Origin: Candidatus Spongiisociaceae bacterium | GTDB lineage: Bacteria; Actinomycetota; Acidimicrobiia; Spongiisociales; Spongiisociaceae | NCBI GenBank assembly: GCA_965202665.1 | Contig: OZ241841.1 | Location: forward strand, 992,001 to 1,056,000 | Direction of reading: 5' to 3' | Length of the DNA stretch: 64,000 nt | In this document: piece after piece, positions 21,917 to 61,268 of the stretch | How the letters are laid out: each line of letters opens with the position of its first letter | Position numbering within the stretch: position 1 is the stretch's first letter | Program-made: the position numbers and the translations under genes | Notes under the pieces: generated by a model | What the model was told of the DNA's origin: nothing | The model's input: only the letters and a program-made list of their open reading frames with translations | The model's database searches: none

Positions 21917-21943
21917 TTGACAAATTGGGGGGGGGGGTAGCGT
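21917..21943 (+). promoter_or_regulatory. Putative phase-variable promoter 1
   Basis: TTGACA-AATT-G11-TAGCGT; spacer 15 bp. Confidence 0.8.
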
Positions 21944-22011: not shown

Positions 22012-25000
22012 ATGCGGCGGTTGGCGGTGTTGGCGTTGGCGGCGGGGTTGGTCTGGTCGGTGTTGCCGGTTGCGCCGGCGGCGGTGGGGGCGCAGACGGT
22101 GATTACGCTCAGCGTGGTCGATGAGTCGAATACCAATACCGTGGTGACTTCGTTGGGGGAGGACGATGCTGTCGGGGGTAAGTTTTTTCATTTGAAGGCA
22201 ACGGCGGCTTCGGCGTCTAGTTCTCCTGTGACGGTGACGGTTACTCGGGGAGGCAACGCTACTGTGAGTGATCTGACATTGATCCCACTGGGTTTTGGTT
22301 TTAGGGCTGAGTGCCGCAGTGGTGATGCGTGTATGAGCTCTACCGTCTTTCTTAATGTTACCATTCCAGCGAACCAGACAAGCGGTACAACTATTTTTAG
22401 TTGGCCTGTTTATACTCGGTCAGATACGATTACGGAGGATCATGAGACCATCACCTTTTCCGGTACCGCTTCTGGGTATACGGTGAATGGGACTACTTTG
22501 ACTATCACCGATCAGGACCGGGCGATTAAGGTGGATATTCCATCGGATTTTTTAGTAATGCCGGAGAGAGGAGAAGGTGAATCTGTGAATCGAAACGGTC
22601 GTCATGTCTATTGGCCTAATTCAAGGAAGGCTGTTTTGGGTGGGGTTACGAATGGTGTGTTCACTGCTTCTACTTCTTCTACGTACAGCCAAAATTTGTC
22701 GGGTATGCGATTGAAGGTGGTAAGTGGGACGGCTACGCAATCTGAAATTTTGAGTACTAATATCGATGTCTTTCACGAGCATAATTCTGATAGTAATACT
22801 CCTTTGCAAGCTACGATAACCGCCGGATCTCTTTCCGGAGATTTTATTGGTATATATAATACCAATTCTACTTTGTCTTTGGGAATTGTAAGTGATAGGA
22901 GGGTGGAGCCGGATGAGACTTTTTATCTTAGGGTGGACCGTCCGGCGGGTTGGACCTGGTTTCAGACCCCGATAACTGTTAAGGATGCGAATCGTCGGGT
23001 GAGATTGACGGTGGATACCGATAGTGAGGCTATGGGGAATCAGGATGTGTTAACGGAAGGGGATTCCGGTTCGGGGGTGTCGGTGTCGGCTAATTTTTGG
23101 AACGCGACGTCTTCGGTGTTGCCTTCGGCGACGGCGGTGACGTTGTCGGCGGCGGCGGAGACTCCGGCGGGGGCGGGTAAGGCGACGGCGGCTGATTTCA
23201 CGTATGCTCCGTCCACGGCGAATACGATTTCTTTCCCGGCTCAGAGTGTCACTGCTTCGGGTTCGGCGACGTTGGCTGGTTTGACGATTACTGATGATTC
23301 GGTTGTGGAAGGCCCGGAAACTTTTCTGGTGAACGGGTCGTCGGTGCTGGGAACCGCTACTAAGGCGGACACGTTGACTATATATGACAATGACGCTGAT
23401 ATTGAGTTGGAGGTGTCCCCGTCATCGGTGGAGGAGCAGGCGGGGGCGCAACAGGTTACGGTGACCGCCCGGTTTAAGGGTTCATCGTCGATTTTGACAT
23501 CGGCTACTGATGTGGCGGTGACGGTAGCGGGGGCGGGCGGGGCGACTTTGTCGTCGTGTCCGGTGTCTGGCGGGAATGATGCTTGTACCAGTTTGACGGG
23601 TAATGCGACCACGATTTCCATTCCGGCGGGCGGGACGTCGGAGAGCGCAACTTTTACGGTGACGGTTCCTGATGATAGTACGAGCGAGTCGGGGGAGAAG
23701 TTGACGCTGTCGGGGACGGCGTCGGTGGGCGGGACAGCGGTGTCGGTGGACTCGGCGGATCTACCAATTATCGACGCGGGAACGCGGGTGGATTTGTCTT
23801 TGCATGAGGCGGTTAGCGGGGAAGCGGCGCTGTCCGGGATAGCGGAGGATGGAGGGGCGCGGACGGTGCGGGTGAAAGCCACCGCTGCGACGGCGGTGCC
23901 TTCGCAGACCACCATCAGCGTAAACGTGGGTGCTATGGGGGGGACGGCGACGGTGGGGATGTGCACGGGGAGCGGCCAGTCCCGGTCTTGTTCGAGCGGC
24001 GACTACGACCGGGGGTCGGCGACGGTGGACGTGACGATCCCATCGGGCGGTACGTCGGCAACCTCGGACGTGACCATTACTCCCCTTTCGGACACAACCG
24101 CGGAGGGGGAGGAAACCATCCGGTTCGCCGGTTCCGCTACCGGGTTTACGGTGTTTCCCGCGGATTTGAAGATCACGGAAACGATAGAGTTGACAGTTAG
24201 CCAAACTTCGGTGAGTGAGGGAGCGGCCAACGCCGGTGCGGCGTCGGTGACGGCTTCTTATGCGGGGGCGTCTACTTCGACGCTGACTACGGCGACGGTT
24301 GTTACGTTGTCGTTCGGGGCGGGCGAGGGAGCGGAGGCGGCGGATTTCACCGCTCCCGGAGCGGGTAGTGAGATCACGGTGAGCATCCCGGGTTCTACCA
24401 CTTCTAGTTCGGCGGTTGCTTTGACTGGTTTGCTAGTTGTAGGGGATAGGATCGCGGAGGGGGAGGAGAAGATTGATGTCGGGGGGACGGCGGATGGGTT
24501 TGTGGTGAGCGGTACGGAGCTGACGATAGCCGATGATGATCTGGGGGTGACTTTAACGGCGGACACCGATAGCGGCACGAACGGGGAGCAGCAGACTTTA
24601 CCGGAGGGTGAGGCGGCGGCGGTGCGGGTGCGGGCCCGGTTCACTTCCGCTACCACCAACGATTTGGCCGCTGTTTATGAGATTCAGGTTACCGCCGGGG
24701 AGGGTTCTCCGGTGTCGGCGACCGGCGGAGGTGTTGATTTCACCGCCCCGGGCGCGGCGGCGACGGTTACCATACCCGCCGGAACCGCCCTGCAAAGCGG
24801 TTGGGTGAATCTAACCGGCCTGTCGGTGGCGGATGACACGATAGCGGAAGGATCGGAAACTTTTCTCATCACCGGTACCGCTACAGGCGGGACGGTGGTT
24901 GCGGAGACGGTAACCATCGTCGATGACGATGTGGATGTGTCTTTGTCGGCGTCTCCGGCGGAGGTGGTGGAACAGGCGACGGCGCATCAGATAACGGTAA

Positions 25001-28000
25001 CCGCCCGTTTTCAGGGGGCCACGTCGGTGTTGTCGGCGGCTACTCCGGTGACGGTAACGGTCGGGTCGGCGGACACCAGCGGCGCGACGGTGCATACCGC
25101 GGTATGTCCTATGATGATGACAATTACAGCGGATGTGTGCACCAACCAGACGAACAATCAGTTCACGGTCAGTATCCCCGCCGGGGGTGTCAGTGGTTCG
25201 GGTTCTTTTCAGCTGCGGGCCCGCGTCGATGGGGACGACGCCGAGGGTATCGAGTATTTGAAACTGACCGGTTCTACTTCTATAGGTCAGGTGGCGTCCG
25301 CTCAGATGGGCGTTTTCGATCCGGGCCGGGCGTTTACCTTGTCTTTCCATGAGCCGACCAGCGGCGACCCGGCCCTGTCGGGGATAACCGAGGACGGGGG
25401 GGCGCAGACGGTGCGGGTGAAAGCCACCCTCGGCGCACCCGCTTCATCGTCCGCCACAGTGACCGTAAACGTAGGAACCGCAGGCGGAACCGCCACTTTG
25501 GGACCAATCGGGGATTACACCCGCGGGAGCGCTACGGCGACTATCACCATCAACAGCGGCGAAACCAGCGGAACGGCCGATGTTGTGCTCACTCCCCGCA
25601 ATGAGGGAACGGTGGAGGGGGCGGAAACCATCCGTTTCACCGCTTCCGCCACCGGCGGGTATCTGCCCGCGGTGGCTGATTTGTCGATTCTGGAAACGAT
25701 CACTTTGGCTCTCAGCCAGTCCACGGTGGATGAAAGAGACGCCAACGCGGGAGCGGTAACCGTTACCGCCTCTTTCGCGGGGGCGTCCAGTTCCTCCCTC
25801 ACCCAAGCTACGGATGTAACTTTGTCGTTTGGGGCGGGTGAGAACGCGGAGGCGGCGGATTTCACCGCCCCCGGCGCGGCGGTGACGGTGACCATTCCCG
25901 CTGGTTCTACTAGTAGTTCGGCGGTTGCGTTGAGCGGTTTGCTGATTACCGGGGATACTATCGCGGAGGACGCGGAGAGTATCAACATCGACGGTACCGC
26001 CGGGGGGTTCGCGGTTAGCGGAACGACGCTGGTCATCACCGACGACGACCTAGACGTAACCCTGACGGCGGACACTGACAGCGGAGAAAACGGGAATCAG
26101 AAAACCCTGTCGGAGGGCGGGACGGTTGCGGTGCGGGTACAAGCCGCGTTCGCCACCGCCACCAGCAACGACATTGGGTCTGCTTTGCAAGTACGCGTAA
26201 CCGCGGAGGCTTTATCACCGGCGTCGGCCGAGGCGGGGGGAATCGATTTCACCCCTCCCGCCACCCCGGTTACGGTATCCATCCCCGCCGGGCAAACCCA
26301 GAGTGCCTGGACGAACCTGACCGGACTGGCGGTAACGGACGATGCGGTAACCGAGCTGGCGGAAACGTTCAGAATCGCGGGGACGTCGGTGAACAGCGGC
26401 GTGGGGATTACCCCGGATACGTTGACTATCGGAGCCAGCGACACCGCTTTGGAGGTAACCGCCTCGCCGGGGTCGGTGACGGAAAGCACCAGCGCCCACA
26501 ACATAACGGTCACCGCCGGGTTCGCCGGAGCCACCTCCTCCGTACTAGCAACCAACACCGACGTAACGGTAACGGTAGCGGCCGGGGACACCAACGGGGC
26601 CACGGTGGCGACAGCATGCTCTCAGTCGATGACCGAAGATGTGTGCACCGACCAGACGGGCAACTCGTTCACTATCCGCATCCCGGCTGGTCAGCACTAT
26701 CACACGGGCTCGTTTCAGCTGACAGCCCGAGTAGACACAGACCCGGAAACTACTGCGGAAACGGTGAAAATCAGCGGCTCGGCCACTGTCGCCGGAACAG
26801 CCGCCTCCGACACCGCCACCATCAACATAGCCGACAGCGGCATCACCCTCGCCCTAACCAACGCCTCCGATAGCAGCGCCCTGTCCGCGTTGGATGAAAA
26901 CAGCGGAACAACCACCATACGGGTTACCGCCACCCTGCCGGTGGCAGCCCCCGCCGGGGGTGCGGTAGTGGGCCTGGAGATAGACGAGGACAGCACCGCC
27001 ACCGTAGATTCCAACCGCGTCTGGACCAACCGGGAAGACTACCGGGTGGTTTGGCCCGCCAAACCGAGCGGAACCCCCTCCGGATACGCCACCGGCATCG
27101 CCGTCCCCGCCGGCTCCACCACCGGCCACGCCGACATCCAAATCACCATCAACGACGACAACGTCGACGAGCCGGCGAGGAGGATAGAAATCAACGGCAG
27201 CCATGTAAACATCAACAGCGTGGATTATCACACGGTAGCCGCCGCTTTGACTCTGAACGACAACGACGACCCCCCCACCGCTATCACCCTCACCCTGCAC
27301 AGCACCCGCGCCGACAGCAGCGGGGAACACCTCACCCAAGCCCACGAAAACCAAGAAACCCGGGTACGGGTAATAGCCGCCTTCCAAGGAACCGCCACCC
27401 GCTCCGCCGCCACCTTCGTACCCATCGTAGTCGGCAAAACCGCTACCGGGGAAGCCACGCCGGGAACCGACTATCAAACAGTAAACACCTTCAACGTGCG
27501 AATCTCCGGCTACCAAACCCTAGGAGCCGACACCTTCCTCCTCAAAACCGACGGAACATACAACGACAACGCCTTCGAAGGACCGGAAACGCTAACCGTC
27601 GCCGGCGGAACCCTCGCCAATTTCACCATCGCGCAAGACACCCTCACCATCATCGACGACGACCTAACCGTCGCCCTCACCCTCACCCCCAACCAAGCAA
27701 CCGAAGGAACCACCAACACGTCCGTAACCTTGCGGGCCGCCTATCCGACCGGGGAGACCCTCCCCAACCCCCACACCATAACCCTGGGCCGCGGGGGAAC
27801 CGCCGCCGCCGCCGACTACACCGCCCCCGCCCTCACCCCCCTAACCATTCCCGCTAACCAAAACAGCGCCACCCGAACCCTCAGCCTGCCTATCACCGAC
27901 GACAGCATCGATGAACCAGACGAAACCATACAAATAACCGGAACCTCCGCCGGAATCGCCATCGAACCCGCCGTCTTCACCATCGAAGACAACGACGACC

Positions 28001-29118
28001 CACCCACCGGCATCACCCTCACCGTCAACCCCGCCAGCCTGCCCGAAGGACAAACCAACCGTCAGATCACCATCACCGCCCGGCTAGACGGCTCCACCAC
28101 CCGATCTGAAGCCACCCAAGTGGCTATAACCATCCCCGGCCCCGACAGCACCGCCACCCCCGCCGACTACCGAATCACCAACCAGCCCACCACCATAACC
28201 ATCCGCCCCGAAACACAATCCGGCTCCGGAACCTTTAACATAACCATCCCCAACACCGACGGCCCCGAACCAAACGAAACCCTCCAAATAACCGGCGCCG
28301 CCGTCGGGTTCACCACCATCACCCCCGCCGTCCTCACCATCCGCAACAGCGCACCTCCGTCGCCCCCAACCACCACACCAAACCCACCCACCGGAGGAGG
28401 TGGAGGAGGAGGGGGGGGCGGCGGTGGAGGCGCGCCTCCTCCGGCCGCGCCGCCCCCCGCGGGCGGAGGAGGTGGTGGCGGAGGAGGGGCCCCACCCCCC
28501 GCCGCGCCCGCACCGCCGACCGCGCCGGTGGTCTGCCAGGGTCGGTTCTGCGACGACGACGGCAGCGTCCACGAAGACAACATCGAGTTGATGGCCATAT
28601 GGGGAATAACCATCGGATGCGACGCCAACGACTCCACCAAATACTGCCCCAGCGCCCAAATCACCCGCAGGCAAATGGCCACCTTCATCTACCGCGCCGT
28701 CAACCCCCGCTGGCCCATCCAGTTCCCCACCGGCATAGAAATAGCCGACGTCCCCGCCGACGCCAGCTACCGCCCCTACGCCAACTGGCTAGTCAGCATC
28801 GGGGCGTTCCAACTAGACGACGGGAACTTCAACCCCCGGGGCATAGTAACCCGAGCCGACATGGCGGTCATGATGGTAGCCGCTTTCCCCCACATCCAAG
28901 CCGTATCCGAATCCCAAAACCTGTTCGCCGACACCGCCAACCTGGACGCGGCCGTGGTGCGGGCCATCGAAGGCATCGCCGAAAGCGAAGTGACCAGAGG
29001 ATGCACCACCACGCCCCCCCTCAGATACTGTCCCAACAACCCGGTAACCCGCGCCCAGATGGCATCCTTCTTCGTAAGAGTAATCAACCAAGCCCCCACC
29101 ACCACCGACGAATCATAA
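22012..29118 (+). CDS. Giant secreted Calx-beta/Ig-like repeat surface protein with C-terminal SLH-like domains, copy 1
   Basis: GGAGG RBS, signal peptide, repeated 'ADFTAP...ITDD..EG.ET' units, Pro/Gly linker, 'RFCDDDGSVHE..CPSAQITRRQMA..VTRAQMASF' SLH-like end. Confidence 0.88.
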   Translation: MRRLAVLALAAGLVWSVLPVAPAAVGAQTVITLSVVDESNTNTVVTSLGEDDAVGGKFFHLKATAASASSSPVTVTVTRGGNATVSDLTLIPLGFGFRAECRSGDACMSSTVFLNVTIPANQTSGTTIFSWPVYTRSDTITEDHETITFSGTASGYTVNGTTLTITDQDRAIKVDIPSDFLVMPERGEGESVNRNGRHVYWPNSRKAVLGGVTNGVFTASTSSTYSQNLSGMRLKVVSGTATQSEILSTNIDVFHEHNSDSNTPLQATITAGSLSGDFIGIYNTNSTLSLGIVSDRRVEPDETFYLRVDRPAGWTWFQTPITVKDANRRVRLTVDTDSEAMGNQDVLTEGDSGSGVSVSANFWNATSSVLPSATAVTLSAAAETPAGAGKATAADFTYAPSTANTISFPAQSVTASGSATLAGLTITDDSVVEGPETFLVNGSSVLGTATKADTLTIYDNDADIELEVSPSSVEEQAGAQQVTVTARFKGSSSILTSATDVAVTVAGAGGATLSSCPVSGGNDACTSLTGNATTISIPAGGTSESATFTVTVPDDSTSESGEKLTLSGTASVGGTAVSVDSADLPIIDAGTRVDLSLHEAVSGEAALSGIAEDGGARTVRVKATAATAVPSQTTISVNVGAMGGTATVGMCTGSGQSRSCSSGDYDRGSATVDVTIPSGGTSATSDVTITPLSDTTAEGEETIRFAGSATGFTVFPADLKITETIELTVSQTSVSEGAANAGAASVTASYAGASTSTLTTATVVTLSFGAGEGAEAADFTAPGAGSEITVSIPGSTTSSSAVALTGLLVVGDRIAEGEEKIDVGGTADGFVVSGTELTIADDDLGVTLTADTDSGTNGEQQTLPEGEAAAVRVRARFTSATTNDLAAVYEIQVTAGEGSPVSATGGGVDFTAPGAAATVTIPAGTALQSGWVNLTGLSVADDTIAEGSETFLITGTATGGTVVAETVTIVDDDVDVSLSASPAEVVEQATAHQITVTARFQGATSVLSAATPVTVTVGSADTSGATVHTAVCPMMMTITADVCTNQTNNQFTVSIPAGGVSGSGSFQLRARVDGDDAEGIEYLKLTGSTSIGQVASAQMGVFDPGRAFTLSFHEPTSGDPALSGITEDGGAQTVRVKATLGAPASSSATVTVNVGTAGGTATLGPIGDYTRGSATATITINSGETSGTADVVLTPRNEGTVEGAETIRFTASATGGYLPAVADLSILETITLALSQSTVDERDANAGAVTVTASFAGASSSSLTQATDVTLSFGAGENAEAADFTAPGAAVTVTIPAGSTSSSAVALSGLLITGDTIAEDAESINIDGTAGGFAVSGTTLVITDDDLDVTLTADTDSGENGNQKTLSEGGTVAVRVQAAFATATSNDIGSALQVRVTAEALSPASAEAGGIDFTPPATPVTVSIPAGQTQSAWTNLTGLAVTDDAVTELAETFRIAGTSVNSGVGITPDTLTIGASDTALEVTASPGSVTESTSAHNITVTAGFAGATSSVLATNTDVTVTVAAGDTNGATVATACSQSMTEDVCTDQTGNSFTIRIPAGQHYHTGSFQLTARVDTDPETTAETVKISGSATVAGTAASDTATINIADSGITLALTNASDSSALSALDENSGTTTIRVTATLPVAAPAGGAVVGLEIDEDSTATVDSNRVWTNREDYRVVWPAKPSGTPSGYATGIAVPAGSTTGHADIQITINDDNVDEPARRIEINGSHVNINSVDYHTVAAALTLNDNDDPPTAITLTLHSTRADSSGEHLTQAHENQETRVRVIAAFQGTATRSAATFVPIVVGKTATGEATPGTDYQTVNTFNVRISGYQTLGADTFLLKTDGTYNDNAFEGPETLTVAGGTLANFTIAQDTLTIIDDDLTVALTLTPNQATEGTTNTSVTLRAAYPTGETLPNPHTITLGRGGTAAAADYTAPALTPLTIPANQNSATRTLSLPITDDSIDEPDETIQITGTSAGIAIEPAVFTIEDNDDPPTGITLTVNPASLPEGQTNRQITITARLDGSTTRSEATQVAITIPGPDSTATPADYRITNQPTTITIRPETQSGSGTFNITIPNTDGPEPNETLQITGAAVGFTTITPAVLTIRNSAPPSPPTTTPNPPTGGGGGGGGGGGGGAPPPAAPPPAGGGGGGGGGAPPPAAPAPPTAPVVCQGRFCDDDGSVHEDNIELMAIWGITIGCDANDSTKYCPSAQITRRQMATFIYRAVNPRWPIQFPTGIEIADVPADASYRPYANWLVSIGAFQLDDGNFNPRGIVTRADMAVMMVAAFPHIQAVSESQNLFADTANLDAAVVRAIEGIAESEVTRGCTTTPPLRYCPNNPVTRAQMASFFVRVINQAPTTTDES

Positions 29119-29199
29119 CCCATCCCCCGCCCTCAGGTTTCCCCACCCCCCCCCCCCGGTTAAGGAATCCCCTCCGCTGGGTTATCACCTTCCCTGCGT

Positions 29200-29235
29200 C
29201 AGAGGGTTGCCGAATCCCCGGTCGGTGACCCTTTG
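29200..29235 (+). terminator. Imperfect hairpin after copy 1, possible terminator
   Basis: CAGAGGGTTGCCGA ... TCGGTGACCCTTTG pair with G-U wobbles; no U-tract. Confidence 0.35.
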
Positions 29236-29324
29236 GCATAGCTGTTGAGTATTGCTTCATCGGCTCTCCGCGCAGCCGAATTGGGCAAACGGCGGTTCAA
29301 CACCTCCGCTGACGCGGGGGCAAT

Positions 29325-29351
29325 TTGACAAATTGGGGGGGGGGGTAGCGT
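29325..29351 (+). promoter_or_regulatory. Putative phase-variable promoter 2
   Basis: TTGACA-AATT-G11-TAGCGT, identical to promoter 1. Confidence 0.8.
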
Positions 29352-29408
29352 TTATCGCAATTGGCCCTGATAAGGGCTGGGCCGGAAGCGAAAGATGGAG
29401 GTTGGGCG

Positions 29409-32400
29409 ATGCGACGGCTTGGGCTGTTGGCGTTGGCGGCGGGTTTGGTCCTGTCGCTGTTGCCAGCCGTGCCTGCGGTGATGGGGGCGACGGCGATTAC
29501 GTTCAGTTTGGTTGATCCTTCGGGCAACGCGGTGACCTCGGTGGGGGAGGACAGCGGTTCGAAGGTTGTGCGGTTGAGGGCGTCGGTGGCTTCGGCGCCG
29601 TCCTCCAATTTGCAGATTAGCATCAGTCGGTTGTCCGGTACTGCCACTCAAGGAACGCGTATAGATTTGAATAGGTTTGATCCGGGTCGTCCTCCGAGGC
29701 TTGTTTGCAATTCTGGTGATTACTGTGCTAATGAGCCTTGGAATTTAACTATTCATAGGAATCAAACAAGTGTTACGTCTACTAATTTTACGATTGAACT
29801 GCGGTCGGATAGGATTACGGAGGAGCATGAGACCATCATTTTTTCCGGTTCCGCTTCTGGGCATACGGTGACTCCGGCTACTTTGACGATTACCGATCAG
29901 GACCGGGCGATTAAGGTGAACATATCGCAGGATACGTTACGGGAGAGGGGAGAAGGCGAATCTATGAGTGGACTCTATAGTCATTTGTTTGAACCCACGA
30001 TAACGGTTGTGGTGGGTGGGGTGACGAATGGCGTGTTCACTGCTTCTACTTCTTCAACATACAGCCAAGCTTTAGCGTACAGTGAATCAAATACGACAAA
30101 TATGAGAATACTGACACAGGCGGGAACCGCTGGGGTGATAGACACGGTCAATCAGAATGCCTATTATAATACGGATGTCATTGTAGACCATAATAGTGAT
30201 GGTAATGATCCTATAGGTGTGAAGATAGCCGCCAATTCGGTTTCCGGGACTACCCATTTTGTGTCTGGCGGCGGTAGCATAACCTACCAACTACGAATTA
30301 TAAGGGATGGGGTGGTGGAGCCGGATGAGGTTGTTTATGTTAGGTTGAACACCGTCCCGTCGGGTTGGACGGTGTTTAGGACCCCGATAACTATTCAGGA
30401 TGCGAATCGTCGGGTGAGCTTGACGGTGGATACCGATAGTGAGGCTATGGGGAATCAGGATGTGTTAACGGAAGGGGATTCCGGTTCGGGGGTGTCGGTG
30501 TCGGCTAATTTTTGGAACGCGACGTCTTCGGTGTTGCCTTCGGCGACGGCGGTGACGTTGTCGGCGGCGGCGGAGACTCCGGCGGGGGCGGGTAAGGCGA
30601 CGGCGGCTGATTTCACGTATGCTCCGTCCACGGCGAATACGATTACTTTCCCGGCTCGGAATATCACTGCTTCGGGTTCGGCTACGTTGGCTGGTTTGAC
30701 GATTACTGATGATTCGGTTGTGGAAGGCCCGGAAACTTTTCTGGTGAACGGGTCGTCGGTGCTGGGAACCGCTACTAACGCGGACACGTTGACGATATAT
30801 GACAATGACGCTGATATTGAGTTGGAGGTGTCTCCGTCGTCGGTGGATGAGCAGGCGGGGTCGCAACCGGTTACGGTGACCGCCCGGTTTAAGGGTTCGT
30901 CGTCGATTCTGACGACTGCTACAAATGTGACGGTGTCGGTGGCGGGGTCGGGTGGGGCTTCTTTGGGTTCGTCGTGTCCGACTACTAGCGGGCAGGATGC
31001 TTGCACTAATTTGACTAATAATCAGATGACGGTGTCTATTCCGGCGGGTGCGACGTCGGGGACCGGAACGTTTATGGTGACGGTTCCTGATGATAGTACG
31101 AGCGAGTCGGGGGAGAAGCTGACGCTGTCGGGTTCGGCGTCAGTGGGCGGGACGGCGGTGACGGTGGAGTCGGTGGATTTGCCGATTGTGGATGTGGGGA
31201 CGCGGGTGGATCTGTCGTTACATGAAGCGACGGCGGGCGAGGCGGCGCTGGCGGGGATAGCGGAGGGTGGGGGGGCGGAGACGGTGCGGGTGAAAGCTAC
31301 GGCGGGAGCGGCGGTGACCTCGGATACGACGATTAGCGTGAATGTGGGGGCGGCGGGGGGTACGGCGACGTTGGGGACATGCACGGGTAGCGGACAGTCC
31401 CGGTCTTGCACAAGCGGCGACTACGACCGGGAGGCGGCGACGGTGGATGTGACGATCGCGTCGGGTGAGACTTCCGGGACGGCGGATGTGACGATCACTC
31501 CCCTGTCGGATACGGTGGCGGAGGGGGAGGAAACGGTTCAGTTCACCGGTTCCGCCGCCGGGTTTGCCGTGTTCCCCGCGGATTTGAAAATCACCGAAGA
31601 GATTACGTTGACCCTCAGCCAGCCGTCAATAGGCGAGAGCGCGACGAACGCGGGGGCGGCCACGGTGACGGCCGCGTTCGCGGGGGCGTCTACTTCGGAG
31701 TTGACGGGGGCGACGGTTGTGACGTTGTCGTTCGGGGCGGGCGAGAACGCGGAGACGTTGGATTTCACCGCTCCCGGCACCGCGATCACGGTGAGCATTC
31801 CGGCTTCTTCCACCTCCAGTTCCGCTACCGCTCTGACCGGTTTGCTGATTACCGGGGATTCGATCGCGGAGGGGGAGGAGAAAATCGATGTTGGGGGGAC
31901 GGCGGATGGGTTTGTGGTGAGCGGAACGGAGCTGACCATAAACGACGATGATCTGGGGGTTACCTTAACGGCGGACACCGACAGCGCCACCGGGCAGCAG
32001 CAGACTTTGCCGGAGGGTGAGGCGGCGGCGGTGCGGGTACGGGCCCGGTTCACATCAGCTACTACCAACGACTTGACCGCCGCGCATACGGTTCAGGTGA
32101 CCGCGGAGGAGGGTTCTCCGGTGTCGGCGACCAGCGGGGGTGTTGATTTCACCGCCCCCGGCACGACTGCGACGGTGACTATGCCCGTCGGAACCGCCCT
32201 GCAAAGCGGCTGGGTGAATCTCACCGGCCTGTCGGTGGCGGATGACACGATAGCGGAAGGAGCGGAGACTTTTCTCATCACCGGCACCGCAACAGGCGGG
32301 ACGGTGGTTGCGGAGACGATAACTATCGTCGACGACGACGTTGACGTAACACTGTCCGCGTCTCCGGCGGAGGTGGTGGAGCAAGCGGCGGATCATCAGA

Positions 32401-35400
32401 TAATGGTAACCGCCCGTTTTCAGGGTGCTACTTCGGTGTTGTCGGCGGCGACTCCGGTGACGGTAACGGTCGGGTCGGCGGACACCAGCGGCGCGACGGT
32501 GCATACCGCGGTATGTTCTACGATGACGATGACAGCGGATGTGTGCACCAACCAGACGAACAATCAGTTCACGGTCAGCATCCCCGCCGGGGATGTCAGC
32601 GGTTCGGGTTCTTTTCAGCTGCGGGCCCGCGCCGATGGGGATGACACTGAGGGTATCGAGTATTTGAAACTGACCGGTTCTACTTCTATAGGTCAGGTGG
32701 CGTCCGCTCAGATGGGCGTTTTCGATCCGGGTCGGGCGGTTACTTTGTCTTTCCATGAGCCGACCAGCGCCGCTCCGGCCTTGTCGGGGATTACCGAGGA
32801 TGGGGGGGCGCAGACGGTGCGGGTGAAAGCCACCCTCGGCGCAGCCGCCTCATCGTCCGCCACGGTGACCGTAAACGTAGGGGCCGCGGGCGGAACCGCC
32901 ACTTTGGGAGCAACCGGGGACTACACCCGCGGGAGCGCCACGGCGACTATCACCATCGCTAGCGGCCAAACCAGTGGGACGGCCGATGTTGTGCTCACTC
33001 CCCGCAACGACGGAACGATTGAGGGGGCGGAAACCATTCGTTTCACCGCTTCCGCTACCGGCGGGTATCTGCCCGCGGTCGCTGATTTGTCCATTTTGGA
33101 GACGATCACTTTGGCCCTAAGCCAATCCACAGTAGATGAAAGAGACGCCAACGCCGGAGCCGTAACCGTTACCGCCTCATTCGCCGGGGCGTCCAGCTCC
33201 TCCCTCACCCAAGCCACCGACATAACCCTGTCGTTCGGGGCGGGAGAGAACGCGGAAGCGACGGATTTCACCGCCCCCGGTACCGCGGTAACGGTGACCA
33301 TCCCCGCTGGTTCTACTAGTAGTTCGGCGGTTGCTCTGTCTGGTTTGCTGATCACGGGGGACACGATCGCCGAGGACGCGGAAACTATCGACATCGACGG
33401 TACCGCCGGGGGGTTCGCGGTTAGCGGAACGACGCTGGTCATAACCGACGACGATCTAGAAGTGACCCTGACAGCGGATACTGACAGCATGGAAAGCGGG
33501 AATCAGAAAACCCTGTCGGAGGGCTCAACGGTTGCGGTGCGCGTGCGGGCCGCGTTCACCACCGCCACCAGCAACGATATAGGATCCGCTCTGCAAGTAC
33601 GCGTGACCGCGGAGGCTTTGTCGCCGGCGTCGGCTGAGGCGGGGGGAATCGATTTCACCCCTCCTGCTACCCCGGTTACGGTGTCCATCCCCGCCGGACA
33701 AACGCAAAGCGCTTGGACGAACTTGACGGGCCTGTTGGTTACGGATGATGCGGTAACCGAGTTGGCGGAAACGTTCAGAATCGCCGGAACGTCGGTGAAC
33801 AGCGGCGTAGGGATTACCCCGGACACGTTGACTATCGGAGCCAGCGACACCACTTTGGAAGTAACCGCCTCGCCGGGGAGGGTGACGGAAAGCACCGACG
33901 CCCACAACATAACGGTAACCGCCGGGTTCGCCGGAGCCACCTCCTCCGCGCTAACAACCAACACCGACGTAACGGTAACAATAACAGCCGGGGACACCAA
34001 CGGAGCCACCGTGGCGACAGCATGCTCTCAGACAATGACCGAAGATGTGTGCACCGACCAGACAGGCAACTCCTTCACCATCCGCATCCCCGCCGGGCAG
34101 CATCATCATACGGGGTCGTTTCAGCTGACCGCCCGGGTTGACACAGACGCGGAAACTACTGCGGAAACGGTGAAAATCAGCGGCTCGGCCACCGTCGCCG
34201 GAACATCCACCTCCGACGCCGCCACCATCAACATCGCGGACAGCGGCATACGGCTTGCCCTGACCAACCCCTCCAACAACAACGCCCTGTCCGCATTGGC
34301 GGAAAACAGCGGAACAACCACCATACGGGTTACCGCCACCCTGCCGGTGAACGCCCCTACCGGCGGCACGGTGGTGGGCCTGGAGATCGACGAGGACAGC
34401 ACCGCCACCGCGGACCCCAACAACGTTTGGACCAACCGGGAAGACTACCGAGTGGCCTGGCCCTCTAAACCGAGCGGAACCCCCAACGACTACAACACCG
34501 GCATCACCATCCCCGCCGGTACCAAAACCGGCTACGTGGATATAGATATTACGGTAAACGATGACAACGTCGACGAACCGACAAGAAGGATAATCATCGA
34601 CGGCAGTCATGTAACAATCAACAACGTGGATTATCACACGGTAGCCGCCGCCCTCACCATCAACGACAACGACGGCCCTCCCACCGCTATCACCCTCACC
34701 CTGCACAGCACCCGCGCCGACAGCAGCGGGGAACACCTCACCCAAGCCCACGAAAACGAAGAAACCCGGGTGCGGGTGGTAGCCACCTTCCAGGGAACAG
34801 CCACCCGCTCCGCCGCCACCTTCGTCCCCATCGTGGTCGGCAAAACCGGGGAAGCCACCGAAGGAACCGACTACCAAACGGTAGCCGACTTCAATGTGGA
34901 AATCCCCGGCTACCAAAACAGCGGCACCGACACTTTCCTGCTCAAAACCGACGGAACATACAACGACGCAACCTTTGAGGGCCCGGAAACGCTAACCGTC
35001 GCCGGCGGAACGCTCGCCGGATTCACGATCGCGCAAGACACCCTCACCCTCATCGACGACGACCTGACCGTAACCCTCACCCTCACCCCAAACCAAGGGA
35101 CCGAAGGAGACACCAACACGTCCGTAACCCTACAAGCCGCCTACCCGACCGGGGAAACCCTCCCCAACCCCCACACCATAACCCTCGCCCTCGGGGGAAC
35201 CGCCGCCGCCGTCGACTACACCGCCCCCGCCCTCACCCCCCTAACCATCCTCGCTAATCAAAACAGCGCCACCCGAACCCTCAGCTTGCCTATCACCGAT
35301 GACAGCATCGATGAACCGGATGAAACCGTACAGATAACTGGAACCTCCGCCGGAATCACTATCACCCCCGCCACGTTTACTATCAAAGACAACGACGATC

Positions 35401-36566
35401 CACCCAGCGGCGTCACCCTCACCGTCAACCCCAACAGCTTACCCGAAGGGCAAACCAACCGCCAGATCACCATCACCGCCCGGCTGGACGGCTCCACCAC
35501 CCGATCTGAAACCACCCAAGTGGCTATAACCATCCCCGGCCCCGACAGCACCACCACCCCCGCCGACTACCAAATCACCAACCAGCCCACCACCATAACC
35601 ATCCGCCCCGCAACACAAACCGGTAGCGCAACCTTTAACATAACCATCCCCAACACCGACGGCCCCGAACCAAACGAAACCCTGCAGATAACCGGAACCG
35701 CCGCCGGATTCACCGCCATCACCCCCGCCGTCCTCACCATCCGCAACAGCGCACCCCCGCCCCCGCCCCCGCCGCCCCCAACCAGCACACCAAGCGCACC
35801 CACCGGAGGAGGAGGCGGAGGAGGTGGAGGTGGTGGAGGGGGCGGAGGAGGAGGGGGTGCGCCGCCGCCGGCCGCGCCGCCACCCGCCGCCGGAGGAGGA
35901 GCGCCGCCCCCCGCCGCAGGAGGGGCCCCGCCGCCTGCTGGGCCCGCCCCGCCGGTTGCGCCGCCGCCTGCGCCGGTGGCCTGTCAGGGTCGGTTCTGCG
36001 ACGACGACGGCAGCGTCCACGAACCCAACATCGCGTTGATGGCCGAATGGGGAATAACCATCGGATGCGACGCCAACGACCCCACCAAATACTGCCCCAG
36101 CGCCCAAATCACCCGCAGGCAAATGGCCACCTTCATCTACCGAGCCGTCAACCCCCGCTGGCCCATCCAAATCCCCACCGGCGTAACAATCAACGACGTC
36201 CCCGCCGACGCCAGCTACCGCCCCTACGCCAACTGGCTGGTAAGCATCGGAGCCTTCCAGCTAAACGACGGGAACTTCAACCCCCGGGGCATAGTAACCC
36301 GAGCCGACATGGCCGTCATGATGGTCGCCGCTTTCCCCCACATCCAAGCCGTAACCGAATCGCAAAACCTGTTCGCCGACACCGGCAATCTGGACGCAGC
36401 GGTAGTGCGGGCTATTGAAGGCATAGCCGAAAGCGAAGTAACCAGGGGATGCACCACCACGCCCCCCCTCAGATACTGTCCCAACAATCCGGTGACCCGC
36501 GCCCAGATGGCGTCCTTCTTCGTAAGAGTAATCAACCAAGCCCCCACCACCGACGGAGGATCATAA
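29409..36566 (+). CDS. Giant secreted Calx-beta/Ig-like repeat surface protein with SLH-like domains, copy 2
   Basis: Same architecture; highly similar to copy 1 outside the N-terminal ~330 aa. Confidence 0.88.
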   Translation: MRRLGLLALAAGLVLSLLPAVPAVMGATAITFSLVDPSGNAVTSVGEDSGSKVVRLRASVASAPSSNLQISISRLSGTATQGTRIDLNRFDPGRPPRLVCNSGDYCANEPWNLTIHRNQTSVTSTNFTIELRSDRITEEHETIIFSGSASGHTVTPATLTITDQDRAIKVNISQDTLRERGEGESMSGLYSHLFEPTITVVVGGVTNGVFTASTSSTYSQALAYSESNTTNMRILTQAGTAGVIDTVNQNAYYNTDVIVDHNSDGNDPIGVKIAANSVSGTTHFVSGGGSITYQLRIIRDGVVEPDEVVYVRLNTVPSGWTVFRTPITIQDANRRVSLTVDTDSEAMGNQDVLTEGDSGSGVSVSANFWNATSSVLPSATAVTLSAAAETPAGAGKATAADFTYAPSTANTITFPARNITASGSATLAGLTITDDSVVEGPETFLVNGSSVLGTATNADTLTIYDNDADIELEVSPSSVDEQAGSQPVTVTARFKGSSSILTTATNVTVSVAGSGGASLGSSCPTTSGQDACTNLTNNQMTVSIPAGATSGTGTFMVTVPDDSTSESGEKLTLSGSASVGGTAVTVESVDLPIVDVGTRVDLSLHEATAGEAALAGIAEGGGAETVRVKATAGAAVTSDTTISVNVGAAGGTATLGTCTGSGQSRSCTSGDYDREAATVDVTIASGETSGTADVTITPLSDTVAEGEETVQFTGSAAGFAVFPADLKITEEITLTLSQPSIGESATNAGAATVTAAFAGASTSELTGATVVTLSFGAGENAETLDFTAPGTAITVSIPASSTSSSATALTGLLITGDSIAEGEEKIDVGGTADGFVVSGTELTINDDDLGVTLTADTDSATGQQQTLPEGEAAAVRVRARFTSATTNDLTAAHTVQVTAEEGSPVSATSGGVDFTAPGTTATVTMPVGTALQSGWVNLTGLSVADDTIAEGAETFLITGTATGGTVVAETITIVDDDVDVTLSASPAEVVEQAADHQIMVTARFQGATSVLSAATPVTVTVGSADTSGATVHTAVCSTMTMTADVCTNQTNNQFTVSIPAGDVSGSGSFQLRARADGDDTEGIEYLKLTGSTSIGQVASAQMGVFDPGRAVTLSFHEPTSAAPALSGITEDGGAQTVRVKATLGAAASSSATVTVNVGAAGGTATLGATGDYTRGSATATITIASGQTSGTADVVLTPRNDGTIEGAETIRFTASATGGYLPAVADLSILETITLALSQSTVDERDANAGAVTVTASFAGASSSSLTQATDITLSFGAGENAEATDFTAPGTAVTVTIPAGSTSSSAVALSGLLITGDTIAEDAETIDIDGTAGGFAVSGTTLVITDDDLEVTLTADTDSMESGNQKTLSEGSTVAVRVRAAFTTATSNDIGSALQVRVTAEALSPASAEAGGIDFTPPATPVTVSIPAGQTQSAWTNLTGLLVTDDAVTELAETFRIAGTSVNSGVGITPDTLTIGASDTTLEVTASPGRVTESTDAHNITVTAGFAGATSSALTTNTDVTVTITAGDTNGATVATACSQTMTEDVCTDQTGNSFTIRIPAGQHHHTGSFQLTARVDTDAETTAETVKISGSATVAGTSTSDAATINIADSGIRLALTNPSNNNALSALAENSGTTTIRVTATLPVNAPTGGTVVGLEIDEDSTATADPNNVWTNREDYRVAWPSKPSGTPNDYNTGITIPAGTKTGYVDIDITVNDDNVDEPTRRIIIDGSHVTINNVDYHTVAAALTINDNDGPPTAITLTLHSTRADSSGEHLTQAHENEETRVRVVATFQGTATRSAATFVPIVVGKTGEATEGTDYQTVADFNVEIPGYQNSGTDTFLLKTDGTYNDATFEGPETLTVAGGTLAGFTIAQDTLTLIDDDLTVTLTLTPNQGTEGDTNTSVTLQAAYPTGETLPNPHTITLALGGTAAAVDYTAPALTPLTILANQNSATRTLSLPITDDSIDEPDETVQITGTSAGITITPATFTIKDNDDPPSGVTLTVNPNSLPEGQTNRQITITARLDGSTTRSETTQVAITIPGPDSTTTPADYQITNQPTTITIRPATQTGSATFNITIPNTDGPEPNETLQITGTAAGFTAITPAVLTIRNSAPPPPPPPPPTSTPSAPTGGGGGGGGGGGGGGGGGGAPPPAAPPPAAGGGAPPPAAGGAPPPAGPAPPVAPPPAPVACQGRFCDDDGSVHEPNIALMAEWGITIGCDANDPTKYCPSAQITRRQMATFIYRAVNPRWPIQIPTGVTINDVPADASYRPYANWLVSIGAFQLNDGNFNPRGIVTRADMAVMMVAAFPHIQAVTESQNLFADTGNLDAAVVRAIEGIAESEVTRGCTTTPPLRYCPNNPVTRAQMASFFVRVINQAPTTDGGS

Positions 36567-36637
36567 CCCCCCTGGTTCAAAAGGTGGCCAAATTGGGGAA
36601 ACGGCGGTTCAACGCCTTGCTGGCGCGGGGGGTTGAT

Positions 36638-36664
36638 TTGACAAATTGGGGGGGGGGGTAGCGT
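36638..36664 (+). promoter_or_regulatory. Putative phase-variable promoter 3
   Basis: TTGACA-AATT-G11-TAGCGT, identical to promoters 1 and 2. Confidence 0.8.
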
Positions 36665-36723
36665 TTTTCGTAATCGGCCCCGTTTACGGGCTGGACCGGA
36701 AAGCGAAGGATGGAGGTTGGGTG

Positions 36724-39700
36724 ATGCGACGGCTGGGGCTGTTGGCGTTGGCGACGGGAATGGTCCTGTCGGTGTTGCCGGTTGCGCCTGCGGAGGTGGG
36801 GGCGCAGACGACGGTTACGCTCAGTTGGGTTGATCCTTCGGGCAACGCGGTGACCTCGGTGGGGGAGGACATCGGTTCGAGGATCTTGCGGTTGAAGGCG
36901 TCGGTGACCTCGGCGCCATCCTCCGATTTGCGGGTGTTGCTTGATAGTACGCCGGGCGGTACCGCCTCTGGAACAACGTGGCGTGATGCTAGAACCTTCG
37001 AGGATCGTAACTTAGGGCGTCCTCCGAGGATTGTTTGCAATGGTGCTGATTACTGTGTTAACGTACCTTATTCAGTAACAATTAGCGCGGGCACTACTAC
37101 CGGTACTAGTTCTAATACTACATTCTATCTGAAGTCGGACAGGATTACGGAGGATCATGAGACCATCCTGATCAGTGGCACCTTTGCCGGGTATACGGTG
37201 ACTGACGCTACTTTGAGGATTACCGATCAGGACCGGGCAATTAAAGTGGATGTAGCGTCAGATTATTTAGTACTGCGGGAGAGAGGAGAAGGTGAATCTA
37301 ATAATCGAAACTATGGTCATATCTATTGGGATAGTCCGAATGCTATTGTGGGTGGGGTGACGAATGGTGTGTTCACTGCTTCTACTTCTTCAACATACAA
37401 CGCAAGGTTGTCGGGAATGCGGCTAAGATTTGACAGCGGGACAGCTACGGTATCCAACTGGGATAACAGTGCTAGCTATGATGTCTATCATCAGCATGGT
37501 CCTGCTGACGATGTAATGAATGCAGCGATAAACGCTAGATCTATTTCCGGGGCTGTCGCTGGCGATACCCCGGGTATTCGACTTGCTTTGGGAATAATCG
37601 CTGATAGGAAGGTGGAGATGGATGAGATATTTTATCTTAAGGTGGACGTTCCGCAGGGTTGGACCCAGTTTAGAACTCCGATAACTGTTAAGGATGCGAA
37701 TCGTCGGATGGGTTTAACGGTGGATACTGATAGTGAGGCTATGGGGGATCAGGATGTGTTGACGGAGGGTGATCCTGGTTCGGGGGTGTCGGTGTCGGCT
37801 AGTTTTTGGAACGCAACGCAGTCGCAGGTTTCTTCGGCGACGACGGTGACGTTGTCGGCGACGGCGCAGACTCCGGCGGGGGCGGGGAAGGCCACATCGG
37901 CTGATTTCACGTATGCTCCGTCCACGGCGAATACGATTTCTTTCCCGGCTGGAAGCGCGACTGCTTCGGGTACGGCGACGTTGGCGGGGTTGACGGTTAC
38001 CGATGATATGGTTGTGGAGGGGCCGGAAACCTTCTATGTGGGTGGGTCGTCGGCGCTGGGAACGGCTAGGGGGTCTGTGTTGACGATTTATGACGATGAC
38101 GCTGATATTGAGTTGGAGGTGTCTCCGTCGTCGGTGGAGGAGCAGGCGACAGCGCAGCGGGTTACGGTGACGGCCCGGTTTAAGGGGTCGTCGTCGGTTT
38201 TGACGTCGGCGACTGATGTGGCGGTGACGGTGGCGGGGTCGGGTGGGGCTTCTTTGGGGTGTCCGGCGAATACGAACGATGCTTGTACTAGTTTGACTAA
38301 TAATCAGATGACGGTGTCTATTCCGGCGGGTGCGACGTCGGGGAGCGACACGTTTATGGTGACGGTTCCTGATGATAGTACGAGCGAGACGGGGGAGAAG
38401 TTGACGGTGTCGGGGGCGGCGTCGGTGGGTGGGACAGCGGTGTTGGTGGAGTCGGCGGATTTGCCGATTATCGACGCGGGGACGCGGGTGGATTTGTCTT
38501 TGCATGAGGCGACGGCGGGGGAGGCGGCGTTGGCGGGGATAGCGGAGGATGGGGGGGCGCGGACGGTGCGGGTGAAGGCTACTGCGAGGGCGGCGGTGAC
38601 CTCGGACACGACCATTAGCGTGAACGTGGGGGCAACGGGGGGTACGGCGACTTTGGGGACATGCTCGGGGAGCGGTCAGTCCCGGTCGTGCGCGAGCGGT
38701 GATTATGATCGGGGGTCGGAGACGGTGGATGTGACGATTGCGTCGGGTGAGACTTCCGGGACGGCGGATGTGACGATCACTCCTTTGTTGGATACGGTGG
38801 CGGAGGGGGAGGAAACTGTTCGATTTACCGGTTCCGCTTCTGGGTTCGCGGTGTTTCCCGTTGATTTGAAAATTACTGAAGAGATTACGTTGACGCTTAG
38901 CCAGTCATCGGTTGGCGAGGGCGCAACGAATGCGGGTGCGGCGTCGGTGACGGCGGCGTTTGCGGGAGCGACTACTTCAGAGTTGAGCGGGGCGACGGTT
39001 GTTACGTTGTCGTTTGGGGCGGGCGAGAACGCGGAGGCGCAGGATTTCACCGCTCCGGGCACGGCGTTGACGTTGAGCATCCCGGCTTCTTCCACTTCTA
39101 GTTCCGCTACCGCTCTAACCGGTTTGCTGATTACGGGGGATGCGATCGCGGAAGGGGAGGAGAAAATCGATGTTGGGGGGACGGCGGAGGGGTTTGGGGT
39201 GAGCGGAACGGAGTTGGCGATAACCGACGATGATATGGGGGTTACTTTGACGGTGGACACGGACAGCGCGTCCGGGGTGCAGAGAAACCTGTCGGAGGGT
39301 GAGGCGGCGGCGGTGCGGGTGCGTGCCGCTTTCACTAGCGCCACTTCCAATGGTTTAGGATCCGCTCTGCAAATAAGCGTCACCGCGGGGGCTTCGTCGC
39401 CGGCGTCGGCGACTGGAGGGGGTGTTGATTTCACAGCTCCCGGTACGGCGGTGGTGTTGTCTATACCAACCGGGTCGACCAGCTTGCAAAGCAGCTGGGC
39501 GGATCTCACCGGGTTGTCGGTAGCGGATGATACGGTAGCGGAAGGGTCGGAGACGTTTCTCGTCACCGGTACCGCAACAGGCGGCGCGACGGTGGCTTCA
39601 GACACGATAACTATCGTTGATGATGACGTTGACGTGACTTTGTCGGCGTCTCCGGCGGAGGTGGTGGAGCAAGCGGCGGCGCATCAGATAACGGTAACCG

Positions 39701-46884: not shown

Positions 46885-46960
46885 CAGGGGCGGAGGGACT
46901 CGAACCCCCAACCTCCGGTTTTGGAGACCGGCGCTCTAACCAACTTCGAGCTACGCCCCT
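46885..46960 (-). tRNA. tRNA-Trp (CCA)
   Basis: Cloverleaf AGGGGCGTAGCTC...CT-CCA-AA...GTTCGAGTCC; CCA end not encoded. Confidence 0.95.
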
Positions 46961-50455: not shown

Positions 50456-50529
50456 TAGCGGCGGGCAGACTTGAACTGCCGACCTCTCGATTATGAGTCG
50501 AGCGCTCTTACCGACTGAGCTACGCCGCC
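50456..50529 (-). tRNA. tRNA-Met (CAT)
   Basis: GGCGGCGTAGCTCAG...CT-CAT-AA...GTTCAAGTC; Ile2 identity cannot be excluded. Confidence 0.9.
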
Positions 50530-50556
50530 GCCGCCGACCGGTTTAGCCGGCCGTCG

Positions 50557-61258: not shown

Positions 61259-61268
61259 ATCAAGTACT

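Follow-up and report, generated by a model that had tools for sequence, protein, structure and literature searches.

Exchange and likely diversification of an N-terminal tip domain among SLH-anchored surface proteins of a probable sponge symbiont

Overview

The genome of a bacterium that is likely a sponge-dwelling actinobacterial symbiont encodes 11 SLH-anchored paralogs whose N-terminal tips (domains D1 and D2) vary strongly. The reading we favour, and consider probable, is that D2 has been exchanged among these genes and is likely under diversifying selection, and that poly-G promoter tracts likely set which tips are displayed. How a bacteria-eating sponge recognizes and tolerates its symbionts is an open question, and the Calx-beta proteins of sponge symbionts have so far been counted, not dissected. 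Here, one 150-residue domain (D2) is named as the swapped, likely selected part, candidate residues are given and the domain is tied to a likely on/off switch; if true, coat variation of the kind seen in pathogens would also occur in the symbiont of a marine invertebrate, there on a wall-anchored scaffold.

The gene family and its promoters

The window (the whole 64,000-nt stretch analysed) carries three tandem genes encoding SLH-anchored proteins of ~2,370 aa each with Calx-beta-like repeats:

wA (P0001), 22012..29118, + strand, 2368 aa, start codon ATG at 22012
wB (P0002), 29409..36566, + strand, 2385 aa
wC (P0003), 36724..43803, + strand, 2359 aa
C-terminal SLH-bearing region of wA, 28534..29115, + strand, Pfam PF00395 above cut-off
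Predicted promoter of wA, 21917..21943, + strand, TTGACA (21917-21922), AATT and G11 (21927-21937), TAGCGT (21938-21943), spacer 15 nt
Predicted promoter of wB, 29325..29351, + strand, TTGACA-AATT-G11-TAGCGT
Predicted promoter of wC, 36638..36664, + strand, TTGACA-AATT-G11-TAGCGT

The wA product begins with a signal-peptide-like sequence, continues through Calx-beta-like repeats and a Gly/Pro linker and ends in the SLH region, a likely cell-wall anchor. PF00395 (SLH) passes the cut-off in all three window proteins, while the only Calx-beta Pfam match among them is in P0003 and lies below the cut-off. The locus is neighboured by a rhodanese gene and rplA, and an Rfam search of the window returned four tRNAs only. 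Genome-wide, the source genome (G000; single contig, 94.2% complete) holds 11 complete paralogs of 1,850-2,400 aa, the window genes included, and all 11 are intact. RecA was found in the genome, and MutS gave no match.

A TTGACA-N4-G(11-13)-TAGCGT motif lies upstream of all 11 paralogs. A G13 tract, as in p01, corresponds to a 17-nt spacer. Across the genome, G/C runs of length 8 number 96 and those of length 9 a single case; length 10 is absent, yet 75 runs reach 11 or more. Logan contigs of public runs contained, among the matches listed, one locus-assigned G10 contig (depth 3.9), these contigs being too fragmented for locus assignment of G12/G13 or, in most runs, for D1-D2 linkage. Poly-G spacer length sets transcription of tp0126 and porA, with an optimum of 17 nt, according to the accessible text of PMC7864442. 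On the strength of the predicted motif, the poly-G spacer is likely a phase switch that turns each gene on or off.

Two variable domains and three shared blocks

The variable tip consists of two whole domains, D1 and D2, not of short loops:

wA D1, 22093..22506, + strand, variable beta-sandwich at the N-terminus, hairpin insertion spanning residues 58-73
wA D2, 22525..22983, + strand, most variable and most AT-rich domain
wA D3, 22996..23385, + strand, conserved Calx-beta-like domain, 98% nucleotide identity to wB D3
wB D1, 29490..29891, + strand
wB D2, 29910..30398, + strand, blocks at 29892, 30036 and 30398
wC D1, 36805..37221, + strand
wC D2, 37240..37692, + strand, blocks at 37222, 37372 and 37692
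Block 1 (TDQDRA), 22507..22523, + strand, D1/D2 junction, breakpoint cluster
Block 2 (FTASTSS), 22660..22679, + strand, inside D2, conserved in all paralogs, without breakpoint cluster
Block 3 (DANRR), 22983..22998, + strand, D2/D3 junction, breakpoint cluster

A preliminary description of this DNA had reported strongly diverged, AT-richer tips sharing three short exact blocks, and our analysis bears this out. Amino acid identity among paralogs is 53% in D1 and 45% in D2 against 75-81% elsewhere, tip GC is 0.45-0.50 against 0.64 for the genome, and all three blocks occur at 22507/29892/37222, 22660/30036/37372 and 22983/30398/37692. The contrasting peptides that it quoted, VNRNGRHVYW and NNRNYGHIYW, are present in P0001 and P0003, respectively. 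Blocks 1 and 2 recur across other paralogs genome-wide, exactly or with at most two mismatches; exact copies of block 3 are confined to the three window genes. At the local three-way identity of 45%, one of 5,000 codon shuffles gave three shared runs of at least 16 nt; the alignment itself showed runs of 23 and 17 nt, the third being interrupted by another paralog's insertion column.

The structure of D1-D3, predicted by AlphaFold from a 47-row alignment, is modelled as three beta-sandwich domains (pLDDT 90). D3 resembles NCX CBD1 (3gin; Z 9.0, rmsd 3.4, 109 aligned), and D2, taken from the D1-D3 model, had no strong separate structural match, with Atlas leads all below 0.9. Read from the predicted secondary-structure string, 9/17 candidate sites in D2 and 9/10 in D1 fall on strands. 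The antibody-like framework/loop design proposed earlier thus survives in part: an Ig-like beta-sandwich is predicted and a conserved framework with variable parts is seen, but the variation is not confined to CDR-like loops.

Exchange of D2 between paralogs

Judged from the sequences, D2 has been exchanged between paralogs as a whole unit. The closest paralog switches at the D2 borders: nucleotide identity changes from 67% in D1 to 97% in D2 for p02/p04, from 52% to 86% for wA/p11 and from 95% to 62% for p03/p10, and from 64% in D2 to 98% in D3 for wA/wB. A shared tree is rejected for D1/D2 and for D2/D3 (AU tests, p<=5e-9). Among 271 breakpoint calls, drawn from 495 non-independent triplets, 113 map to codon columns 150-199, which include block 1 (column 178), and 51 to columns 340-389, which include block 3 (column 360). 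Two fall in columns 220-249 around block 2 (column 231), even though no other part of the tip is as conserved. The proposal that the blocks act as recombination anchors is therefore supported for blocks 1 and 3 but not for block 2, and a role of the exact blocks as specific recombination sites is not supported, since breakpoints scatter over ~40 codon columns (about 120 nt) at each junction, as expected for homologous recombination.

D2 swapping is also seen in two other genomes, G009 and G001. G009, which belongs to another genus, has gene pairs alike in D1 (98-100%) and unlike in D2, and a gene in which a wA-like D1 (86% nt) is fused to a p03-like D2 (82%).

Because the relatives are MAGs, this genome is by kinship a metagenome bin, and its genes share long repeats; the mosaics could in principle be assembly chimeras of near-identical repeats. 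We consider this very improbable: a contig from run X4 covers wA 22083-22580 across block 1 with no differences, contigs from X1 (possibly the source sample) and X2 run from D2 into D3 (22650-23034) unchanged, the exchanged stretches are 3-20% divergent and not identical, and G009 and G001 repeat the pattern.

Selection on the tip domains

The M0 omega is 0.63 for D1 and 0.79 for D2, against 0.06-0.24 for the remaining 13 segments, and M2a is preferred over M1a in D1 and D2 only (2dL 27.7 and 48.8). The D2 signal replicates in G009 (2dL 37.7) and in two G001 subfamilies (29.3 and 17.2), with the site models placing 10-28% of D2 codons at an omega of about 3-6 in all four paralog sets from three genomes. 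The D1 signal fails to replicate in G009 and G001a, and D3 gave weak signals (M8 p=0.005 in G000; M2a p=0.03 in G001a). Rows left out were p11 (D1) and p05 (D2, D3) in one set of G000 tests, 4/12 tips in G009 and 1/19 (L037) in G001. The strict three-aligner filter retained forced columns in indel-rich loops, and we therefore added indel simulations and close-pair tests. Null simulations (n=16) with indels and realignment, run without multi-nucleotide changes or shifting base composition, reached a maximum 2dL of 11.6.

In the p01/p06 pair, D2 shows 72.5 non-synonymous differences against 7.5 synonymous ones (omega 3.6, p=4e-4). When the variable columns are chosen with the help of other genomes, the pooled pairwise ML omega at these columns is 1.09 in D2 (p=0.5 vs 1) and 0.80 in D1; for D2 of G000 alone it is 1.42 (p=0.08), and the NG86 omega falls from 1.50 to 1.09 without p01/p06. 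D2 framework columns have an omega of 0.40. Diversifying selection, also proposed in the preliminary description, is accordingly graded for D2 as likely but not proven: tip dN/dS lies far above that of the gene body and, for some of the D2 sites, likely exceeds 1, but the pooled close pairs give values near 1.

That pooled omega is also what would be expected if D1-D2 were a tolerant spacer or decoy near neutral drift, its swaps being unselected by-products of conversion tracts started in the flanks. This alternative, which would also accommodate the AT-ward drift as lost constraint and the spread of variability over strands and loops alike, seems to us unlikely, and we give no more credence to its corollary that D1-D2 escape homogenisation only through prior excess divergence. 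Against it stand the D2 class with omega of 3-6, found in every paralog set and far above the indel null, the p01/p06 pair, the constrained framework columns and the intactness of all 11 genes, each with its poly-G promoter.

Across three public runs, D2 of wC shows 0, 1 and 2 differences, so that neither hypermutation nor rapid present-day turnover is apparent; the D2 alleles of wA in two public runs differ mostly non-synonymously. Such near-invariance of wC would suit D2 types that are old, selected specificities (for glycans or host proteins), rarely mixed and outside any ongoing arms race, as would the G009 fusion of wA-like D1 and p03-like D2, which implies that the types either are older than the split or have been passed from one lineage to another. 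We regard this as quite improbable in view of the very recent swaps (D2 of p02/p04; the G009 pairs) and the non-synonymous wA alleles, although it is compatible with diversifying selection on an exchanged D2 and both can hold.

Base composition

D2 is AT-shifted at silent sites too (GC4 0.45 vs 0.75), to a similar degree in conserved (0.47) and variable (0.45) columns. Polarised four-fold AT-to-GC changes number 3/147 in the tip against 103/547 in the body (p=1e-8); GC-to-AT changes are alike in both. The shift is likely mutational drift, the tip having apparently lost the GC-restoring force that acts on the stalk. A foreign origin of D2 was set aside, as the motifs of the repeat family are kept and the AT shift appears in 4/4 genomes examined.

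Separately, a self-complementary G/T-to-C/A mutational gradient runs along every family gene and along multicopy IS elements. No long inverted self-similarity that could cause the skew gradient was found in wA.

Known variation systems

From sequence searches, the tips belong neither to a DGR nor to a silent-cassette system of the vls/pil type nor to a shufflon. The preliminary description had raised a DGR acting in trans, recognizable by adenine-restricted change. An excess of A-G over C-T differences (93 vs 47) in four close D2 pairs and the involvement of A in 61% of differences (A being 26% of bases) would fit; however, A takes no part in 39% of the 257 differences, indels occur frequently and no template repeat was found outside the family genes. 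The genome, a single contig at 94% completeness, has no match to a reverse transcriptase (PF00078, RVT_1; positive in 3/14 control genomes) or to Avd (PF22296, bAvd; no control genome passes the cut-off either). We attach almost no probability to this already largely refuted mechanism.

Silent donor cassettes, likewise suggested earlier, were searched for genome-wide with the 11 tips (blastn, word size 7, E<=0.01); one of 348 matches, a weak one of 52 nt (E 0.001), lay outside the 15 large repeat-gene intervals. Nor does the family appear to have a single expression site, all 11 paralogs being intact with the same predicted promoter motif, or a fixed short crossover site, given the spread of breakpoints. 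No dedicated recombinase lies near the locus (two PF00589 genes are at 223754 and 2680185), and PF00239 had no match in the genome.

Proposed mechanism

In the mechanism that we favour, the repeat stalk would hold D1-D2, the likely binding head, away from the cell wall. Ordinary point mutations together with small indels would supply new head types. D2 would likely be swapped through homologous recombination of the RecA type within the conserved flanking stretches, joining head types to different D1 domains and stalks, and the poly-G run in each promoter spacer would likely decide which variants a cell displays. Candidate selective agents are sponge receptors or glycans, phage and predators.

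More tentatively, and as a reading judged less probable than not, we suggest that sponge-symbiotic Acidimicrobiia may run a combinatorial antibody-like repertoire in an arms race with sponge innate receptors or phage, its recombination being frequent enough to leave the gradient. Selected D2 heads would then be reshuffled onto stalks by ectopic recombination, promoter slippage would sample them cell by cell and the G/T-to-C/A gradient would be the footprint of that recombination.

Comparison with known systems

A literature search in which subscription journals lay mostly outside and many matches were unrelated returned no paper on the 11-gene family, on sponge-symbiont phase variation or on the gradient. 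Calx-beta-domain 'eukaryotic-like proteins' are known from sponge-symbiotic Acidimicrobiia, and an enrichment of Calx-beta genes among symbiotic Actinobacteriota is described in PMC11706023; the accessible main text of that paper counts domains, does not describe tip variation and makes no mention of SLH, S-layer, phase variation or adhesins.

By analogy, the tip system operates in the manner of Neisseria opa or Treponema tpr but uses a different, new scaffold; it shares with these repertoires many complete paralogs with a framework and hypervariable region, and mosaic exchange. The hypervariable regions of opa are shuffled, and opa switching uses coding pentamer repeats. The modelled beta-sandwiches of D1-D3 and the C-terminal SLH region place the family outside Opa, Tpr and WSP.

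Neisseria has about 11 dispersed, individually phase-variable opa genes (accessible text of PMC3745409), and the porA promoter carries a poly-G tract (accessible text of PMC3639595 and PMC7864442); our family resembles the former in gene number and the latter in promoter, but differs from opa in fold, envelope and a probable sponge setting without vertebrate adaptive immunity. Wolbachia WSP, as far as the available text of PMC2843615 describes it, is likewise an invertebrate-symbiont surface protein with hypervariable regions, diversified via point mutation, recombination and selection. It is, however, a beta-barrel with variable loops that has been studied through the alleles of different isolates, whereas here within-genome paralogs with promoter poly-G exchange a domain. 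The tpr genes of Treponema pallidum are, like ours, paralogous surface-protein genes with variable regions and chimeric members, subfamilies I and II having conserved ends, unique central or discrete variable regions and mostly non-synonymous change (accessible text of PMC3656149), and in Treponema tp0126 poly-G length sets the -35/-10 distance (accessible text of PMC7864442). For the tpr products, which come from a pathogen, an outer-membrane beta-barrel fold is predicted, whereas the 11-gene family encodes an SLH-anchored Calx-beta-like fibre, swaps a whole domain and has one spacer-type promoter common to all 11 members.

Architecture and distribution of the surface-protein family

Three large ORFs stand in tandem at positions 21925–43803 of the window. 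Each encodes a protein that opens with a signal-peptide-like segment, continues through acidic-motif repeats of ~130 aa (roughly 16, judging by length) and a Gly/Pro linker, and closes with a C-terminal SLH domain (Pfam PF00395, above cut-off in all three).

wA: ATG at 22012, 2368 aa
wB: ATG at 29409, 2385 aa
wC: ATG at 36724, 2359 aa

The genome (2.77 Mb, one contig, C1; 64% GC, 94% complete) encodes 11 intact paralogs, namely these three, five in tandem at 479–514 kb and three single copies. Matches were returned in 11 of the 41 genomes searched, all from the same family; the relatives G001, G004, G009 and G013 carry large expansions. Among GTDB contigs, 65/73 loci came from records of Ca. 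Spongiisociaceae, Acidimicrobiia or Acidimicrobiales (the remaining eight being weak or partial), and four runs labelled sponge metagenome and four labelled marine metagenome are among the public runs that contain at least half of the words of the locus; therefore, the host is likely a sponge-associated acidimicrobial bacterium. The genome contains 46 SLH-like ORFs in total, three ~4,500-aa paralogs among them; SLH-bearing ORFs of 10,406, 8,083 and 12,734 aa lie at C1:1141278–1172495, 1652233–1676481 and 2390196–2428397, respectively.

For the first 435 residues of the mature protein, a structure model built on a 47-row alignment (pLDDT 90) predicts three beta-rich domains, D1–D3, the first two forming the tip. 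In structure comparisons D1 resembles an Ig-like domain from Bacteroides (3poh, Z 8.5) and D3 resembles Calx-beta CBD1 (3gin, Z 9.0, rmsd 3.4, 109 aligned), while D2 was seen only within tandem CBD12 alignments. Compared over all 11 paralogs, D1 averages 53% amino acid identity and D2 45%, the other segments 75–81%.

Exchange of tip domains between paralogs

The tip domain D2 has been exchanged as a whole between paralogs. Nucleotide identity between p02 and p04 is 67% in D1 and 97% in D2, between wA and p11 52% and 86%, and between p03 and p10 95% and 62%, respectively; wA and wB share 64% in D2 and 98% in D3. The borders of D2 are where the nearest paralog changes, and AU tests rejected shared trees for D1/D2 and for D2/D3.

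The preliminary description had reported three short exact DNA blocks shared by the window genes and proposed them as recombination anchors. All three were recovered exactly, at 22507/29892/37222 (block 1, D1/D2 junction), 22660/30036/37372 (block 2, inside D2) and 22983/30398/37692 (block 3, D2/D3 junction), and exceed chance (1/5,000 codon shuffles). Of 271 breakpoint calls (from 495 non-independent triplets), 113 cluster around block 1 and 51 around block 3; only two fall near block 2, although it is the tip's most invariant stretch, and block 2 is not supported as an anchor. The spread of the breakpoints over ~120 nt fits homologous recombination within conserved sequence better than crossing-over at a specific site. 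No resolvase match was returned in a genome-wide search, the two tyrosine recombinases are both distant from the cluster, and the genes on either side of the cluster are a rhodanese gene and rplA. We infer that D2 was exchanged via RecA-type homologous recombination; two recA genes are present (C1:132747 and C1:1276312, DNA 95% identical). Only wA, wB and wC carry block 3 exactly, a pattern suggestive of local conversion between these neighbouring genes.

Swaps of the same kind occur in G009 and G001, one G009 gene combining a wA-like D1 with a p03-like D2. A contig of public run X4 bridges the wA D1–D2 junction unchanged, which argues against chimeric assembly.

A DGR and silent donor cassettes, both raised earlier as possible sources of tip variation, were rejected. 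Searches of the genome returned a match neither to RT nor to Avd. Adenine takes no part in 39% of D2 differences, although A–G changes are in excess, and no donor or template was detected beyond the large repeat genes: of 348 matches one, a weak one, lay outside them.

Selection and base composition of the tip

Codon models were fitted with our own GY94 code, whose likelihoods match those of IQ-TREE. M0 omega was 0.63 in D1, 0.79 in D2 and 0.06–0.24 in 13 other segments, and among the segments tested M2a was better than M1a in D1 and D2 only. For D2 without outliers, 2dL was 49.5 (omega 3.6 at 23% of sites), the maximum over 16 M1a simulations with indels and realignment being 11.6. The D2 signal was replicated in G009 (8/12 tips) and in two G001 subfamilies (18/19 tips); of these three sets, a single one replicated the D1 signal. 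In p01/p06, a cleanly aligned pair chosen among eight D2 pairs, D2 differs by 72.5 non-synonymous vs 7.5 synonymous differences (p=4e-4). Two results weigh against positive selection: pooled close-pair omega at variable columns, chosen on the basis of other genomes, was 1.09 in D2 and 0.80 in D1 (neither significantly above 1) vs 0.28 in D3, and D3 too gives weak site signals in some sets. Among the allele differences listed, most of those in wA D2 are non-synonymous (5/6 codons in X4 and 7/10 in run X12, partly shared), against 1/4 and 1/6, respectively, in the upstream gene; wC D2, however, hardly varies across three runs. On the evidence of site models, close pairs and run alleles, the variable columns are without purifying selection, a subset of sites is likely under positive selection, and hypermutation of the tip is not indicated.

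The antibody-like picture of variable loops is too narrow, since the D2 candidate sites are predicted on strands (nine) and loops (eight) alike; the variable surface of D2 may comprise an exposed sheet face plus loops. D2 may be a binding domain, and we infer this role along with a selective agent.

Four-fold-site GC is 0.58 in D1, 0.45 in D2 and about 0.75 in other segments; a rough set of 708 further genes has a median of 0.89. Conserved codons of D2 are AT-shifted too, and the shift recurs in G009, G001 and G004 (0.50–0.52 vs 0.74–0.82 in D3). Among polarised four-fold changes, those from GC to AT are about as frequent in the tip (14/172) as in the body (149/1597), whereas AT-to-GC changes are far rarer in the tip (3/147 vs 103/547, p=1e-8). 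A GC-restoring force seems absent from the tips, which we treat as a lead, the outgroups for the tips being distant; biased conversion and weak selection are candidate forces.

Skew gradient and neighbouring features

Four-fold sites of all 11 paralogs run from a G/T-rich 5′ third (0.8–0.87) to a C/A-rich 3′ third (0.2–0.35), as in their relatives in G009, G001 and G004; in non-SLH genes the gradient is flat. This gradient, which is self-complementary, recurs in copies of rve_3-type and ISL3-type IS whichever way they are oriented. It is possibly, though unproven, a footprint of resected single strands flanking breaks repaired between repeats.

22012–43803, and multicopy repeats of the genome (e.g. 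C1:788651–789741, 1687439–1688867): four-fold skew gradient
105–1265 (+), window start: lower-GC AAA_21 (AbiEii-like) ATPase gene
46885–46960 and 50456–50788 (-): four tRNA genes around tuf/nusG/rplA, just downstream of the cluster
49185–50375 (-): tuf copy, four-fold codons ending almost exclusively in G or T; another copy, at C1:2035689, encodes an identical protein
60245–62480 (-): low-GC island (33–46%), ParA-like AAA_31 gene and Schlafen/AlbA_2 plus HATPase_c_4 gene, a possible defence or mobile module

Predicted poly-G promoters

Upstream of all 11 paralogs lies a predicted promoter, TTGACA-AATT/TATT-G(n)-TAGCGT. The run is G11 in six genes (wA, wB and wC included), G12 in four and G13 in one, which makes the spacer 15, 16 or 17 nt long, respectively. 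The motif also occurs in G001, G004 and G009 (G11–G19), and a ~1,250-aa SLH family of this genome shares it. A C12 run at 29146–29157, between wA and wB, lies ~180 nt upstream of the wB promoter; no such run was seen ahead of wA or wC.

Genome-wide, G/C runs comprise 96 8-mers, one 9-mer, no 10-mer and 75 of 11 or more. Of the 76 runs that reach at least nine bases, 24 are preceded by a -35-like hexamer, and 21 of these 24 stand before SLH genes. The other 52 lack the motif, the length gap falls at 9–10, and some runs fall inside long ORFs or close to them, or precede giant SLH genes on the C strand; judged by sequence, the runs are likely a large set of contingency loci.

MutS was not found in the genome and NucS is present; this combination would favour slippage. 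Expression may be controlled by poly-G slippage, and by analogy with tp0126 and porA (PMC7864442), wA, wB and wC in their consensus form would be weakly expressed or silent. Among public runs, one locus-assigned contig carries G10 (depth 3.9), so population support for such a switch is thin.

Comparison with known systems

No description of this surface-protein family was found in the literature searched, the main text of PMC11706023 included. Its overall logic is known, being that of opa, tpr and wsp; unlike those systems, it has another scaffold, swaps a whole domain and belongs to another host group.
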